From Nannocystales bacterium (GTDB taxonomy: Bacteria > Myxococcota_A > Polyangia > Nannocystales > Nannocystaceae), in NCBI GenBank assembly GCA_050633305.1, contig JBOEGF010000018.1, positions 576,001-640,000 of the forward strand: 64,000 nt of DNA, read 5' to 3'. Shown one piece after another: positions 7,538 to 12,648 of the stretch. A program made the translations under genes and the position numbers. The notes beneath the pieces are model-generated. The model was not told the origin of the DNA and searched no databases. It saw only the letters and a program-made list of their open reading frames with translations. Positions within the stretch are counted from its first letter, which is position 1; the number at the start of each line of letters is the position of its first letter.

Positions 7538-8491
7538 ATGACCCGAGCCTCTGCGGTCACGCCCCTCCTCCTCCTCGCTCTCTGCGTGAGCGGATGCGAC
7601 AAGAGTTCGACCCCTGCCGCGGCGGGTTCGGATGCCACCGTTGCGGAGGCTCCTGCGCCTTCCGAGCCTGCGCCCGAGCCCAAGGCCGAAGCTCCGACGC
7701 CCGCGGACGAGCCAACCCTCGCCAACGCCGCTGTGGATGCGTCCAGTTTGGCCAAGGCCGAGCCTGCACCCGAGGCCGAAGCCGCGCCGGAGCCCGCCGA
7801 GCCAGAAGAGCCAGCAGAGCTACCGACGTACAAGGTACTTATCCTCGGCGATAGCCTGATCGCGACGGGCTTCGGAGCACTGCTCGAGAAGAGCCTCGAC
7901 GCGCATCCGCAGGTCACCTGCTACCGCAAGGGCAAGTCGTCCTCGGGTCTGGCGCGACCGGACTTCTTCGACTGGATTGCCGAGGCCAAGCGCCAGGTTG
8001 ACCTCCGCAAGCCCGACCTCGTCGTCGTTCTGATGGGCGGCAACGACGGGCAGGACCTCACGCACCGGAACAAGAAGGCCGGGCGGCGCGTCACGTGGAA
8101 GCATGAGAACTGGGAAGCCGGGTACCGGGAACGGGTGGATAGCCTTCTCGCGCAGGTCTCCGCCCCCGACCGCGACATCGTGTGGCTCGGGATGCCGACG
8201 ATGGGCCTTCGTAGCCTGGAGAAGAAACTCGTCACGATCCGCGGTGTGCAGAAAGCTGCGGTCGAGGCCCACGAGTCGGCCTCGTACGTCGACACGGCAC
8301 CGTTCGTCTCCAATGACGATGGCGGCATGCTCACCCATGCAGTGGTGGGCCCCAGAAAAAAGAAGAAGGCCATCCGCGCAGACGACCGGATCCACTTCAC
8401 GATGGCCGGCAGCCAGTTCTTCGCCGACGCGGTGTACCCCGAGGTTCTCGCGGCGCTGGAGGTCGAGGATGTGGTCGCGGACGAGGACTGA
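7538..8491 (+). CDS. DUF459/SGNH-GDSL hydrolase lipoprotein
   Basis: Lipobox VSGC, Pro/Ala/Glu linker, ILGDSL, SSGLARPDFFDW, GGND, DRIHFT. Confidence 0.85.
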   Translation: MTRASAVTPLLLLALCVSGCDKSSTPAAAGSDATVAEAPAPSEPAPEPKAEAPTPADEPTLANAAVDASSLAKAEPAPEAEAAPEPAEPEEPAELPTYKVLILGDSLIATGFGALLEKSLDAHPQVTCYRKGKSSSGLARPDFFDWIAEAKRQVDLRKPDLVVVLMGGNDGQDLTHRNKKAGRRVTWKHENWEAGYRERVDSLLAQVSAPDRDIVWLGMPTMGLRSLEKKLVTIRGVQKAAVEAHESASYVDTAPFVSNDDGGMLTHAVVGPRKKKKAIRADDRIHFTMAGSQFFADAVYPEVLAALEVEDVVADED

Positions 8492-8554: not shown

Positions 8555-9691
8555 GTGAACCCCCGCGCTCTGCTGCTCTGTGCCGCAGTGTGGGTGGCTG
8601 GATGTGCGACGCCTGGCGCATGGAGTCGTTCGGGACTCGGCTCGGCGCGTGCGGACGCAGGTGCGGCCGAGTTCGGTGCCGGGAAGGGCGAAGAGACCGA
8701 GCGTCCTTGGGTGAAGCACAAGGTCGTTCCACGGGAGCGTATCGAGGACATCGAGAACCGCTACGGCGTGTCCAAGAAGGAGCTCATCCGATGGAACAAG
8801 CGGCTGAAGCAGAAACAGTGGATCTACGCGGGCCAGGTCCTGCGCATCAAGGCGCGCCGTGTTCCTCCGCCCCGCGAGAAGATCACCTACGTCGTCAAGC
8901 GCGGCGACCGGTGGGTCGAGATCGCGAAGGCCCACAACATTCGGGAGAGCGACCTGCGCTCATGGAACCGCAAGGTTCCGCGCGCCTTCAAGGTCGGGCA
9001 GAAGCTGACCGTCTACACCAACCCGCTCGAGGTGGTGGCGCCGCCGTCCGATGACGAGGGAGAGCCGGCGGGCTCGGGTTCGAACCCTGACCGTCTCAGT
9101 GTGCGCTCCAATGCCTTGTCGATCGGCAAGCCCAACCGAGGTCGGATCCAGAACGGAATCCAGCTTCCACAGAGTGAGCACTACACCCTGCGGGATCCAG
9201 ACCGCTCGTATGGCTCCTCGCACGCGGTTACGATCATTCACGATTCGATCGCAGCGTTTCGAGCTGAGACCGGGTACCGCGGCGAGATCAAGATCGCGGA
9301 CATGAGCAAGAAGGGGGGCGGACGGCTTCGCCCGCACGGCTCGCATCAGGCGGGCCGCGACGTCGACATCCGATTGCCCCGTCGCGCAGGCGTGTCCACG
9401 GACAACAAGAGCATCTCCGCGATGGACTGGGACCTGTCCTGGGCGTTGGTGAAGGCGTTCATCGACACCGGCGAGATCGAGTACATCTTCTTGGAGACGG
9501 GCCGGCAGAAGGCGCTTCGGAAGGCCGCGCAACGAGCCGGTGCGTCGGCGTCGGAGCTGGCGCGCGCGATCCAATACCCGAGCAAGCGCGGCACCAACAA
9601 GGGCATTGTTCGGCATGCCAGCGGACACCGGATCCACATCCACATCCGGATCAAGTGCGCCAAGAGCAACAGCCGCTGCAAGTCCTACTGA
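8555..9691 (+). CDS. LysM-repeat lipoprotein with penicillin-insensitive murein endopeptidase (MepA-like) domain
   Basis: Lipobox VAGC; two LysM repeats (HKVVPRE...WN, YVVKRGD...WN); ADMSKKGGGRLRPHGSHQAGRDVD and HIHIR zinc motifs. Confidence 0.88.
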   Translation: MNPRALLLCAAVWVAGCATPGAWSRSGLGSARADAGAAEFGAGKGEETERPWVKHKVVPRERIEDIENRYGVSKKELIRWNKRLKQKQWIYAGQVLRIKARRVPPPREKITYVVKRGDRWVEIAKAHNIRESDLRSWNRKVPRAFKVGQKLTVYTNPLEVVAPPSDDEGEPAGSGSNPDRLSVRSNALSIGKPNRGRIQNGIQLPQSEHYTLRDPDRSYGSSHAVTIIHDSIAAFRAETGYRGEIKIADMSKKGGGRLRPHGSHQAGRDVDIRLPRRAGVSTDNKSISAMDWDLSWALVKAFIDTGEIEYIFLETGRQKALRKAAQRAGASASELARAIQYPSKRGTNKGIVRHASGHRIHIHIRIKCAKSNSRCKSY

Positions 9692-9803
9692 GCGCGGCCC
9701 CAAGCTTTGATGACGGTCCCGCGGCCTGCTCGGAGTCCGAGCCGTTGTTCTCGGTGGCTGTGCTGGCCCGAGGTGTCCCAGTCTTTTTCTTGCTGCGCTA
9801 CAC

Positions 9804-9832
9804 TTGACGCTCGTGAGCTACGCTTGTAGCTT
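9804..9832 (+). promoter_or_regulatory. Sigma70-type promoter of blaI overlapped by a palindromic BlaI/MecI/CopY-type operator
   Basis: TTGACG (9804-9809), 17 nt, TAGCTT (9827-9832), 6 nt, GTG start. Inverted repeat AGCTAC-gctt-GTAGCT at 9816-9831 contains TACGctTGTA, one mismatch from TACAnnTGTA. Confidence 0.72.
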
Positions 9833-9838
9833 TGATTC

Positions 9839-10192
9839 GTGACTGACGCTGAGTGGGACATTCTTGAGGTGCTGTGGCGCCTTGAACAGGCAACGAGCTC
9901 TCAGGTTGCGGAGGCGCTCGCGCAGACCCGCGGGTGGGCGCCATCCACCGTCCGAACGTTCCTGTCCCGGATGAAGGACAAGGGGATGCTCAAGGCGGAC
10001 CGCGTAGGAAAGAACTGGGTCTACCGGGCGGCGAGCGACCCGACGGAGACCCGTCGGTCGGCCTGGCAGAGCTTTGCCCAGACCGCGTTTGGCTCGGTCG
10101 GTGGGGCGCTTCGCTTCCTCGCCGAGGACGCCAAGCTCACCCGAACGCAGAGGACTCGGCTGCTCGAGATGTTGGAGGCCAAAGATGACTGA
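9839..10192 (+). CDS. BlaI/MecI/CopY family transcriptional repressor
   Basis: TDAEWDILEVLW...WAPSTVRTFLSRMKDKGML...FGSVGGALRFL winged-helix pattern. Confidence 0.92.
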   Translation: MTDAEWDILEVLWRLEQATSSQVAEALAQTRGWAPSTVRTFLSRMKDKGMLKADRVGKNWVYRAASDPTETRRSAWQSFAQTAFGSVGGALRFLAEDAKLTRTQRTRLLEMLEAKDD

Positions 10193-11615
10193 TCCATGGT
10201 CCTGGTTGTGGTCTGCGACGCTGTTGACCGGCTTGGTGTACGCGGTGGTTCGTCTCTGCGAGGTGACGTTCGGCCGGCGAATCCCCGCGGTGGTGCGCAT
10301 GGCCGGATACGCGCTGGTGTTCTTTCGACTGTTGACGCCGGCCACTGCGACGCACAGCGCAGCGGTGCTGCCCAAGGAGGTGCTGGCGGTCTCCGTCACA
10401 ACCGCGGAGGCTGTTTCAACCGATTCTTCCGTTTCCCACGAGCTCAAGGCCACGTCGAACTCTGGCAGACCGCTGCCATGGACGCAGACCCTGTACGGGG
10501 CAGGTGTCCTGGTGGTCTTGGGGACCGCGGTGGTGGGCCGACGCCGCGAGCGTTCGTTGCTTCGTACATCGACGCGCGAGATGGGCACCGACGGGGCCCC
10601 GGTTTGGGTCCATCCCACCGCCGGCCCCTGCGTCGTCGGCACGTTTCGGCCCCGTATTGTGGTGCCGGTCGAATTCCGGGAGCTGCCTCACTCGGTACGC
10701 TTGTGCATTCTGGCTCACGAGCGGGCGCACGTTCGTGGCCGTGACCCCTGGATCATGGCGGCACTTCAAGTCGCCGTCGCGGTCTCGTGGCCAGTCGTTC
10801 CATGCTGGCTCGCGGCGGCTCGCATACGAGCGCTCCTCGAGGTGCGGGCGGATGCGACGGCGGTCCGAACACTCGACTCCAACGCCACGCTCTACGGACG
10901 GGCGCTGATTGGGATGGCGTCCGTTCGGCCGCTGGGGAGTCTCCCTGGCCTGTCGGGCTACCGTGCCCTCGCCGAGAGGATTGCGGCCGTGGCGGCAGGT
11001 CCGTCGTCCCCACGGGGGTCCGGCGGTCTGCTGTTGGGGCTCAGCGTTGCAGCCCTCGCATGCAGCGTGCAGGCGGAGTCCTACCCAGCCGTGGAGGCCT
11101 CCGCCGTATCACCGGCCGAACCGCTTCCGGTTTCAGCACGACCCAGCGGTCTGGTGCAGGTTCAGGGCAGCGATGTCTTGCGGGTGGCCCACCCCGAACT
11201 CGCTTGGGCCACCCCCGCCGTCGCTCGAGAACTCGCCGACCTTGCAGCACGCCTTCGATTGAGCAGCCCCGGGGCGATCCTCACGGTCGGCGACCTGAGT
11301 CGGCGTGGCGGAGGACGCTTCCCACCGCACAAGAGCCATCGCGATGGACGGGAGGTGGATCTCCCATGGCCGGTCGATGAGGACGGTCAACTCCTCGCCC
11401 CCCAGGCTTGGGAGCTTCTGCAGGCGTTGGCGGAGAGCGGGAGTGTCGAGGCCATCGTCATCGATGGCGAGTTGCACGAGGGGATTCGCGAGGCAGCAAT
11501 CGCCGACGGAGCGACGGCGGAGGCCCTCGCGGCGCTGTTGCCAGAGCCGTCGGAGGATCCGACGCACCGCTCTCGACACGTTCATGTGCGCTTCCGTGCG
11601 GGCGGAGCGTCCTGA
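10185..11615 (+). CDS. BlaR1-like M56 metallopeptidase fused to a C-terminal MepA-like murein endopeptidase domain
   Basis: TM helices, GPCVVGTFRPRIVVP, LAHERAHVR (HExxH), EVRADA, YGRALI; C-terminal VGDLSRRGGGRFPPHKSHRDGREVD...HVHVRF. Confidence 0.85.
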   Translation: MTDPWSWLWSATLLTGLVYAVVRLCEVTFGRRIPAVVRMAGYALVFFRLLTPATATHSAAVLPKEVLAVSVTTAEAVSTDSSVSHELKATSNSGRPLPWTQTLYGAGVLVVLGTAVVGRRRERSLLRTSTREMGTDGAPVWVHPTAGPCVVGTFRPRIVVPVEFRELPHSVRLCILAHERAHVRGRDPWIMAALQVAVAVSWPVVPCWLAAARIRALLEVRADATAVRTLDSNATLYGRALIGMASVRPLGSLPGLSGYRALAERIAAVAAGPSSPRGSGGLLLGLSVAALACSVQAESYPAVEASAVSPAEPLPVSARPSGLVQVQGSDVLRVAHPELAWATPAVARELADLAARLRLSSPGAILTVGDLSRRGGGRFPPHKSHRDGREVDLPWPVDEDGQLLAPQAWELLQALAESGSVEAIVIDGELHEGIREAAIADGATAEALAALLPEPSEDPTHRSRHVHVRFRAGGAS

Positions 11616-11682
11616 GGACCGGAACAGTCGGTTCCGCCGCGGGGGCCTCGCAAGTCGGGCAATGCGTGGCAGCCTGGCGGCC

Positions 11683-12648
11683 ATGGGACACCTGTTCGAA
11701 GGCACCTGGCGGACCGAGGACCACTTTCCGACAGACAGTGAAGGCCGGTTCGTCCGGAAATCTGCGAGCTTTCGCAACCAGGTGAAAGCTGATGGATCGA
11801 CGCCCTATACGCCCGAGGCAGGTCGTTACCACCTCTACGTCTCGTACGCCTGTCCGTGGGCGCATCGTACGTTGATCGCGCGGGCGCTGCTCGGTCTCGA
11901 GGATGCGATCTCGGTCTCGGTCTGCCACCCGCTGATGCTCGAGGACGGTTGGGTGTTCTCCGAGGGCAAGGCCGAGGTCGCCGACACCGTCAATGGCATC
12001 GACTTCCTCCATCAGCTCTACTCGAAGGCCGACTCCAGCTACACCGGCCGCGCCACGGTGCCGGTGTTGTGGGACAAGAAGACCGGGACGCTGGTCAACA
12101 ACGAGTCGCGGGACATCCTTCGCATGCTCACGACAGAGTTTCGTGGGCTGTGGACTCGCGAGTTGGAGCTGGCACCGACGGGGTTGGTCGGGGAGATCGA
12201 CGAGGTGGCGGCGTCTTTCTACAACGAGATCAACAACGGGGTTTACCGCTCTGGCTTCGCTCGAACCCAAGAGGCCTACGAGAGCGCGGTGACCGAGCTG
12301 TTCGGGGCGCTGGATCACTGGGAAGAGCATCTGTCCACGCGACGGTTCCTCGTGGGCAATCGTTTCACCGAGGCCGACCTCTGCCTCTTCCCTACGCTGC
12401 TGCGGTTCGATCCTGTCTACGTCACCCATTTCAAGTGCAACATCCGGCGACTCGTCGACTACCCGAACCTGTGGGGCTACACGCGCGACATCTTCCAGGT
12501 GCCCGGCGTCGCTTCGACGTGCAGCTTCGAACACATCAAGGCCCACTACTATGGGTCACACGAATCGGTGAACCCGTTCGGAATCGTGCCGCTTGGACCG
12601 GAACTCGATCACACGGCGCCGCATGGCCGTGAGTCGCTCTCCGCGTAG
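11683..12648 (+). CDS. Glutathione S-transferase, glutathionyl-hydroquinone reductase (YqjG/ECM4-like)
   Basis: GRYHLYVSYACPWAHR, TVPVLWD, NNES, NNGVYRSGFA, HIKAHYYGSH. Confidence 0.93.
   Translation: MGHLFEGTWRTEDHFPTDSEGRFVRKSASFRNQVKADGSTPYTPEAGRYHLYVSYACPWAHRTLIARALLGLEDAISVSVCHPLMLEDGWVFSEGKAEVADTVNGIDFLHQLYSKADSSYTGRATVPVLWDKKTGTLVNNESRDILRMLTTEFRGLWTRELELAPTGLVGEIDEVAASFYNEINNGVYRSGFARTQEAYESAVTELFGALDHWEEHLSTRRFLVGNRFTEADLCLFPTLLRFDPVYVTHFKCNIRRLVDYPNLWGYTRDIFQVPGVASTCSFEHIKAHYYGSHESVNPFGIVPLGPELDHTAPHGRESLSA

Follow-up and report, generated by a model that had tools for sequence, protein, structure and literature searches.

A gene in the GC-rich, 11.0-Mb genome of a Nannocystales bacterium (assembly GCA_050633305.1) encodes an M56 membrane protease of the BlaR1 type that is joined, in the place of a sensor, to a domain resembling MepA, the penicillin-insensitive murein DD-endopeptidase of E. 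coli. The gene lies at 10185..11615 on the forward strand of the 64,000-nt stretch analyzed here (contig JBOEGF010000018.1, positions 576,001 to 640,000; hereafter the window), and its open frame encodes a protein of 476 amino acids (P0001; hereafter the fusion). It overlaps the end of blaI, a gene for a BlaI-type repressor. We regard as an evenly balanced proposition that the two genes make up a regulated-proteolysis switch of the BlaI/BlaR type, with a zinc endopeptidase domain of the MepA type (M74, LAS fold) in place of the penicillin-binding sensor.

In the mechanism that we propose, the M56 part would be embedded in the inner membrane, its HExxH...ExxxD active site turned toward the cytoplasm, and the last membrane segment would carry the MepA-like domain into the periplasm. 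There, the domain would engage peptidoglycan peptides, most likely D-Ala-meso-diaminopimelate (D-Ala-mDAP) cross-links or stem peptides. Occupancy of the domain would be passed to the M56 protease and lead to cleavage of the BlaI-type repressor, which would then leave a palindrome before blaI, such that expression of the two-gene operon would rise. The architecture and the BlaI partner are as an earlier reading of the sequence (the original prediction) had described them; the sensing or cleaving of peptidoglycan cross-links and the triggering of BlaI cleavage, which it also put forward, we likewise infer. According to the structural report on BlaR1 (PMC9834060, cited here, as are the other papers below, from excerpts), the state of the sensor is relayed across the membrane to a protease, which directly cleaves BlaI. 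A peptidoglycan-derived signal among BlaR/BlaI kin is suggested by the title of PMC3305447, in which a fragment triggers beta-lactam resistance in Bacillus licheniformis.

An M56 protease joined to a MepA-like domain

Profile score, active-site motifs (HExxH and ExxxD), and an adjacent BlaI-type repressor gene together place the fusion in the M56 family. Pfam PF05569 (Peptidase_M56) matches residues 13-250 (10221..10934, forward strand; E 6.7e-17, 62 bits against a cut-off of 31), a region that takes in three N-terminal hydrophobic helices and a variable outer loop (residues 56-99). The intact HExxH that had been read from the sequence, HERAH (residues 178-182, with H178, E179, and H182; 10716..10730, forward strand), is the zinc-binding and catalytic motif, and it is followed, 41 residues after its first His, by the ExxxD gluzincin motif EVRAD (E219 and D223; 10839..10853, forward strand). 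Both motifs, as well as D187, are invariant in an alignment of 8 full-length fusion sequences (A1). In Staphylococcus aureus BlaR1, the active site is given as H201EXXH and E242XXXD, with a near-strictly conserved Asp210 (PMC9834060, in excerpt). The fusion matches the 41-residue spacing between these motifs and likewise the 5-residue placement of the Asp, here Asp187, the equivalence of EVRAD to the BlaR1 ExxxD being one of spacing and not of tool alignment.

Hydropathy and a low-confidence full-length model put hydrophobic helices at approximately residues 4-29, 35-55, and 100-127, with a last hydrophobic peak at 279-297. Lys and Arg residues number 13 in the stretch 118-190 and 9 in the stretch 210-278, and the last 180 residues of the protein carry a net acidic charge (16 K/R versus 26 D/E). 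Since this layout fits the cytoplasmic protease and extracellular sensor of the published BlaR1 topology (PMC9834060, in excerpt), the MepA-like domain is predicted to lie outside the cytoplasm, in the periplasm. The full-length model was poor (predicted local distance difference test [pLDDT] 52, predicted template modeling score [pTM] 0.34), and Foldseek returned from it weak matches to BlaR1 chains (E 5e-3) and to MepA (E 0.4).

Sequence similarity to BlaR1 itself was low. The NCBIfam model blaR1_generic scored 20.5 bits against a cut-off of 400, over residues 147-245 only; the A1 full-length profile found no Protein Data Bank (PDB) match at E up to 0.01; and the whole of P0001, run as a single sequence against the PDB, gave chance matches only. 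No transpeptidase family was detected in the fusion with Pfam at E up to 0.1, and no beta-lactamase or penicillin-binding protein gene lies near the fusion gene. As judged from its domains, the fusion is not a bona fide beta-lactam sensor.

The outer domain was identified as MepA-like (Peptidase M74, LAS fold) by profile and by predicted fold. It occupies residues 323-476 (11151..11612, forward strand; predicted periplasmic) and contains an H-x-x-H-x6-D motif, HKSHRDGREVD (residues 382-392, with H382, H385, and D392; 11328..11360, forward strand), and an H-x-H motif, HVH (H465 and H467, residues 465-467; 11577..11585, forward strand), which align to GHASHQTGLDVD and HMH, respectively, of MepA (PDB 1TZP). 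The five residues align to 1TZP chain positions 91, 94, 101, 190, and 192, and all are invariant in the 8 sequences of A1 and in a second alignment of 14 M74-domain sequences (A2). In MepA, the zinc ligands are H113, D120, and H211 and the catalytic histidines are H110 and H209, roles reportedly assigned by Marcyjaniak et al. in 2004. The substrate of MepA is the D-Ala-mDAP cross-link of peptidoglycan.

Four lines of comparison agree on this identification. By BLASTP, residues 302-476 of P0001 matched the M74 protein encoded upstream, which carries two LysM domains (E 3e-16). The A2 profile matched 170 residues of MepA (1TZP/1U10; E 3.1e-12), and the two motifs fell into register; the runner-up was a designed repeat protein (E 1.7e-4) with no stretch passing alone. 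An AlphaFold2 model of residues 301-476 made with A2 reached a pLDDT of 83 and a pTM of 0.76, and its first five Foldseek matches were all MepA chains (E 1.5e-7 to 7.1e-7, template modeling scores of 0.58-0.64), followed by Hedgehog N-terminal domains and VanY/LdcB-type enzymes, which have the LAS fold in common. Structural alignment with VIA-align gave Z 13.4 for MepA (root mean square deviation 3.5, 149 residues), approximately 10 for Hedgehog, and approximately 7 for LdcB/VanXY. The MepA-like domain of the original prediction, with its SHRDGREVD and HVH ligands retained, was thus borne out by the profile and by the structure prediction alike.

A predicted two-gene operon with a single candidate operator

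The repressor gene, blaI (9839..10192, forward strand; 117 amino acids), belongs to the BlaI/MecI/CopY winged-helix type (Pfam Penicillinase_R, E 3.2e-26, 92.4 bits), and its product matches MecI (1SD6) at E 1.2e-9. The ATG of the fusion gene, at 10185, sits within the last codons of blaI, for an overlap of 8 nt, and this start Met is common to 6/7 full-length relatives (P0004-P0009) in the 8-sequence alignment.

A candidate BlaI operator, the 14-bp palindrome GCTACGCTTGTAGC (9817..9830, forward strand), ends 8 nt before the blaI start. Its core appears to resemble the TACAnnTGTA box of BlaI/CopY repressors. A box 20 bp upstream, GCTACACTTGACGC (9797..9810, forward strand), is a degenerate copy of the palindrome with 3 mismatches and holds a -35-like hexamer, TTGACG. 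Two metagenome contigs, L090 and L091, were compared with the window. Across these and the window, the 147-nt spacer before blaI is poorly conserved except for one block, which consists of GCTACACTTGACGC, invariant in all three, then six bases of which two are invariant, and then the palindrome, GCTAC-nn-TTGTAGC, whose arms are invariant in 3/3 loci and whose two central bases vary. Its own operon is the only target of the repressor that these data support. The one exact copy of GCTACNNTTGTAGC in the 11.0-Mb genome is the palindrome before blaI; copies with one mismatch number 11, and a reversed-pattern control has more (108 and 126). Additional operators within the window were considered and rejected, as the five matches with no more than 3 mismatches are what chance would give (34/100 shuffles reach five). 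Since the palindrome is the sole exact copy in the genome, the most economical output of the switch would be the fusion protein itself, in which case the sensing domain would also be the induced enzyme.

Rarity and evolution of the fusion

The M56-M74 fusion is rare, as judged from several sequence searches. When 5.8 billion clusters were searched through a word index, 14 proteins came back. Besides the query, they were five ordinary M56 proteins, P0011, and seven full-length relatives that are 44-73% identical to it (P0004-P0010). All seven relatives come from metagenome or run assemblies. A profile was also run exhaustively against 1.84 billion representatives, of which 35,582 matched at E up to 1e-3. 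Among the best 150 of these, the match covers both halves in P0005, P0010, and P0018 only; P0017 is a fragment, eleven proteins are matched in the M74 half alone, and the remaining 135 in the M56 half. When Pfam was run on 83 of the best 150 (P0018-P0100), M56 was found in 83/83 and M74 in 1/83 (P0018); the others had no second domain or had TonB_C (6), ExbD (5), Secretin (2), T2SS-T3SS_pil_N (2), or TPR/YfiO (1). Searches with the outer domain alone, or with P0018, yielded no further fusion. In total, approximately 10 fusion-related sequences were found, and all but the window's own protein and one other are from metagenomes or run assemblies.

With one genome per species (79 loci kept; the window's own genome possibly outside this set), no locus matched the M74 half, and the furthest reach was to residue 374, at 23% identity, in L075. 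In 39 related genomes, there was no second full-length copy among the matches listed (best 150 of 321). The host genome has approximately 20 loci with an M74 domain, 6 with an M56 domain, and one with both. Literature searches found no characterized M56-M74 protein, in agreement with what had been supposed at the outset. The supposed novelty of the architecture holds in part: the M74 fusion is rare and uncharacterized, but both Pfam labels (PF05569 and PF03411) are already present in the precomputed annotation of P0006, P0009, and P0018, and M56 fusions to M23 or Amidase_3 domains are common in a published survey (PMC13492132, in excerpt; see below).

Among the sequences recovered, P0011 and P0169 (306 amino acids; metagenome and run assemblies) represent a natural in-frame deletion form in which the whole M56 part is missing and the last membrane segment, with the MepA-like domain behind it, follows immediately on a BlaI-type DNA-binding domain, with Tyr in place of a conserved Cys discussed below (the lipobox Cys). 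These two members of such length fall in one 90% cluster and come from different sources. On paper, the product would be a ToxR-like membrane-tethered regulator.

L090 has the gene order of the window (a DUF459/SGNH lipoprotein, a LysM-M74 lipoprotein, blaI, M56-M74, GST-like, and pirin), and L091 has the same order plus approximately 3 kb before blaI that includes a gene for an extracytoplasmic function (ECF) sigma factor. The blaI product is 90-91% identical to the copies in both loci. Neighboring proteins are 88-92% identical to their counterparts, whereas the fusion is only 70-74% identical. The nonsynonymous rate (dN) of the fusion gene between the window and L090 or L091 is 0.18-0.21, versus 0.05-0.06 for its neighbors, blaI included (approximately 3.5-fold). 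The ratio of nonsynonymous to synonymous rates (dN/dS) is 0.16-0.19 over the whole fusion gene; taken separately, the M74 domain gives 0.09-0.14 and the outer loop (residues 56-99) 0.32-0.49. The fastest-changing parts are this loop and the linker at residues 298-322. These rates place the fusion gene, in both of its domains, under purifying selection, yet it is evolving faster than its surroundings.

Weighing the proposed mechanism

Several observations weigh against the proposed switch or against parts of it. With regard to the outer domain, the Pfam M74 model (PF03411) missed its threshold on the fusion: it scored 23.1 bits where 25 are required, and its match was confined to residues 338-393. 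In a six-frame search of the genome it scored 22 bits, or 28.2 when summed with neighboring matches in frame, and the relative P0018 passes at 27.4 bits. Despite the sub-threshold Pfam score, the M74 call is secured by the agreement of BLASTP, the A2 profile, Foldseek, and VIA-align. In the A2 alignment, two segments kept in stand-alone relatives are also absent from the fusion clade, one of approximately 10 residues downstream of the Asp motif and the other a conserved (I/V)-V-R-H stretch ahead of H-x-H, so that substrate handling may differ. With regard to the regulatory circuit, the scissile Asn-Phe of BlaI/MecI is not strictly kept in the repressor, where Arg92-Phe93 is found within one position in a low-confidence part of the alignment. 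A second exact operator copy was sought across the 11.0-Mb genome and none was found; no effector gene beyond the operon can therefore be named, and we claim no wider regulon. With regard to the locus, the cassette is missing at the same site in 6/6 same-genus representative genomes, where no match to blaI or M56 adjoins the GST orthologue (in 3 of the 6, a gap of 144-235 nt separates the end of the LysM-M74 gene from the GST gene). Finally, the lipobox-like motif at the end of the last membrane segment may be a sign that the protein is split into its two halves once exported.

The absence of the cassette from the 6 genomes marks it as accessory: by gene order, blaI and the M56-M74 gene are an accessory insertion, or have been lost elsewhere, at a variable spot. 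The site itself (9692-11682, between the LysM-M74 and GST-like genes; compare loci L164-L169) looks like a variable insertion site. Such a cassette might be decaying and have no present function, as its absence from related genomes, the raised dN of the fusion, and the natural deletion form without the M56 part (P0011 and P0169) would allow. We consider this highly improbable, because the frame is open in every relative, the dN/dS of the whole gene is low with the catalytic motifs invariant, and the operator is conserved.

Two origins for the outer domain were considered and rejected. Derivation from a lipoprotein M74 gene, the signal peptide of which would have become the last membrane segment, was rejected because the motif at this segment belongs to the M56 subfamily whatever the outer domain (97/138 representatives; see below) and because the stand-alone M74 relatives that were inspected have no lipobox there. 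Recent duplication of the neighboring LysM-M74 gene was rejected because the fusion domain is 25-28% identical to that neighbor versus 33-39% to other paralogues in the genome.

The two segments lost from the fusion clade, one of them a conserved stretch containing a His, would fit a pseudo-enzyme or tether, in which the MepA-like domain only binds peptidoglycan and thereby positions the M56 protease or reports wall density. Canonical BlaR1 sensor domains are themselves crippled enzymes, and noncatalytic LAS-fold domains exist, the Hedgehog N-domains among our fold matches being an example. However, the five MepA metal and catalytic positions are invariant over 8 fusion sequences that are 44-73% identical, and the dN/dS of the M74 domain is 0.09-0.14. 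Degenerate LytM-type factors, by comparison, usually lose catalytic or metal residues (PMC8416486, in excerpt). We therefore judge a purely binding role to be quite improbable and prefer the reading in which the domain of the proposed switch is an endopeptidase-type sensor.

A lipobox-like motif after the last membrane segment

The last membrane segment (residues 276-297; 11010..11075, forward strand; hydropathy peak at 279-297) contains ALAC followed by S, the Cys being Cys293 (nt 11061-11063). The original prediction had noted a hydrophobic segment ending in LAC, which corresponds to residues 280-293; beyond that observation, the LAC is part of a lipobox-like motif. A lipobox pattern of the PROSITE type matches residues 283-293 in the fusion and has a match in 10/10 M56-M74 sequences, and Cys293 is invariant in 8/8 full-length sequences. 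Arg277 stands 15 uncharged residues ahead of the Cys.

The motif extends to related M56 proteins regardless of their outer domain. It is present in 97/138 of the nearest M56 representatives carrying HExxH, at a distance of 107-126 residues (mode 119) after the HExxH His, and the pattern is scarce elsewhere in these proteins (11 matches in 61,898 residues). In these proteins, the motif is preceded by an Arg-rich stretch and then an uncharged run (median 16.5 residues), and the residue after the Cys is A, S, T, or G in 88/97. The region therefore has the anatomy of a lipoprotein signal peptide, here within a polytopic protein. Lipoprotein-type processing of the fusion is possible on this evidence. 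In S. aureus, signal peptidase I (SpsB) cuts BlaR1 at Gly331/Gln332, in the linker after the last helix, such that the sensor is shed, and the authors tie this cleavage to receptor turnover (PMC9834060, in excerpt); the motif in the fusion is at the position at which BlaR1 is cut.

These features suggest an account in which the fusion is a pro-protein. The last membrane segment would be an internal lipoprotein signal peptide, with Lgt lipidating Cys293 and LspA cutting before it. The freed lipoprotein endopeptidase would then be the induced effector, the M56 core would be left without a sensor, and the cleavage would serve maturation or turnover. The conservation, placement, and anatomy of the motif all speak for this account, as do the enzymes encoded in the genome (three LspA and four Lgt loci) and the precedent of SpsB, which cuts BlaR1 just past its last helix (PMC9834060, in excerpt). 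On the other side, a literature search found no paper linking M56 with a lipobox. Position -2 is frequently occupied by L, V, or F, residues less usual there in lipoboxes, and a conserved Cys could serve another purpose. The motif sits 293 residues into a polytopic protein rather than at a precursor N terminus, and to our knowledge there is no documented action of Lgt or LspA on an internal signal peptide of a polytopic protein. The motif occurs in 0/5 of the other M56 paralogues of the host genome and in 18/78 M56 loci from named genomes (Myxococcota 2/8, Clostridia 13/50, Alpha- and other Pseudomonadota 1/9, Acidobacteriota 1/3, unclassified 1/1), which indicates that it is not needed for M56 function. 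In addition, the two halves are in one frame in every relative, which argues for joint action at least for a time. We thus see processing of the fusion into two proteins as a serious but somewhat unlikely alternative to the proposed switch, in which the halves act as one.

The LspA and Lgt homologues of the host genome are on contigs C32, C47, C6, C8, and C12. On C32 (298673-300610), two LspA genes flank one Lgt gene, and a further locus is at C47:62321-62743.

The same evidence allows a broader conjecture, which we hold to be rather unlikely: a whole subfamily of BlaR-type M56 proteases, the fusion among them, may be made as pro-proteins whose outer domain is set free by Lgt and LspA and stays anchored through a lipid. 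The released domain of the fusion would then be an active MepA-type endopeptidase, which would serve as the sensor and at the same time be the sole product induced from its BlaI-controlled operon. If this were true, signal peptidase processing, a turnover step in S. aureus BlaR1, would have been converted into a type II step with lipidation, through which turnover of the receptor is linked to the supply of a cell wall enzyme, and processing of the motif would change the view of how this M56 subfamily works.

Neighboring genes and other M74 proteins

Upstream of the cassette, a gene for a lipoprotein with two LysM domains and an M74 domain (8555..9691, forward strand; Pfam LysM E 1.6e-17, Peptidase_M74 53.7 bits) encodes a distant paralogue of the fusion's outer domain (25% identity) and is followed by a terminator-like hairpin before blaI (9728-9742). 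Directly 5' of it is a DUF459/SGNH-hydrolase lipoprotein gene (7538..8491, forward strand; Pfam DUF459 E 3.2e-54, lipobox VSGC). The two genes are kept as a pair at approximately 90% identity in L090 and may be a cell wall-modifying gene pair. Downstream, a GST-like gene (11683..12648, forward strand; Pfam GST_C_2 and GST_N_2) begins 68 nt 3' of the fusion gene, and a scan of this 68-nt gap found no terminator-like site.

The M74/MepA-like domain is strongly expanded in the host genome, with 22 matches at approximately 20 loci in open frames of 316-777 amino acids (for example, C5:135831-136445 and C18:751333-751908). Related genomes of the same family each have 5-20 matches to P0001, mostly to its M74 half. 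An M74 search of 14 control genomes gave a match in one only, that of E. coli.

Stand-alone and LysM-linked M74-like proteins (window positions 8555-9691; P0107-P0164) have the invariant D, S, GG, H, H, G, D, W, H, H, and R columns in common with the fusion domain, to which they are 25-39% identical. They differ from it in having ordinary or lipoprotein signal peptides and, often, LysM domains, and in keeping the two segments that the fusion clade has lost.

Relation to known systems and implications

The closest functional models are BlaR1/BlaI and MecR1/MecI of S. aureus and B. licheniformis, for which BlaR1 structures exist (8EXP-8EXT; PMC9834060, in excerpt). Like these receptors, the fusion is an M56 gluzincin. 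It is predicted to have, as they do, an outer loop that connects helices 2 and 3 and an extracytoplasmic domain beyond the last membrane segment, and a processing-type motif lies directly after that segment. Like the BlaI/MecI systems, its locus has an adjacent BlaI-type repressor gene and a palindromic box at its own promoter. Two differences stand out. The outer domain of BlaR1 is penicillin binding (class D beta-lactamase-like), whereas that of the fusion is, by sequence and predicted fold, of the zinc LAS-fold endopeptidase type, and what follows the last helix is, in BlaR1, a site for type I signal peptidase but, in the fusion, a lipobox-like (type II) motif.

MepA (1TZP and 1U10) is the best fold match for the outer domain, and both of its motifs are kept, but identity in the structural alignment is 17-22%, and the fusion domain has approximately 155 residues versus approximately 240 in the Pfam M74 model. 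MepA is also a soluble periplasmic enzyme, whereas the fusion domain is joined to a membrane protease.

The breadth of the M56 family was surveyed in the CenIR paper (bioRxiv 10.64898/2026.04.08.717257; PMC13492132; J Bacteriol 2026). In the excerpts used here, it counts approximately 15,000 M56 proteins in InterPro with 254 architectures. Only approximately 6% of the proteins carry a penicillin-binding domain, and for approximately 96% a BlaI homologue is encoded no more than five genes away. The architectures that reach at least 100 entries include M23 and Amidase_3, and these excerpts do not describe the hydrolase-domain fusions as characterized. The design of the fusion is like that of the M56-M23 and M56-Amidase_3 proteins, with a hydrolase-type domain in the sensor place, usually beside a BlaI homologue, although M74 is outside the nine M56 architectures with 100 or more entries given in the survey. 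Likewise, in the part of a 2019 review of cell wall hydrolases available to us (PMC6403190), the listed partners of M74 are amidase, transglycosylase, LysM, and peptidoglycan-binding domains, with M56 not listed. Since the survey gives M56 joined to M23 or Amidase_3 as common, the fusion is, by its domain content, a rare variant of the theme of an M56 protease with a cell wall hydrolase domain, not a new system.

In sum, BlaI/BlaR switches are mostly not about beta-lactams, and almost no alternative sensor has a known ligand. Because the substrate of the M74 family is defined, an outer domain taken from it provides an unusually concrete ligand hypothesis, the D-Ala-mDAP cross-link, for a noncanonical BlaR. 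The arrangement suggests a minimal circuit in which one protein may be the sensor, the transducer, and the induced cell wall enzyme.

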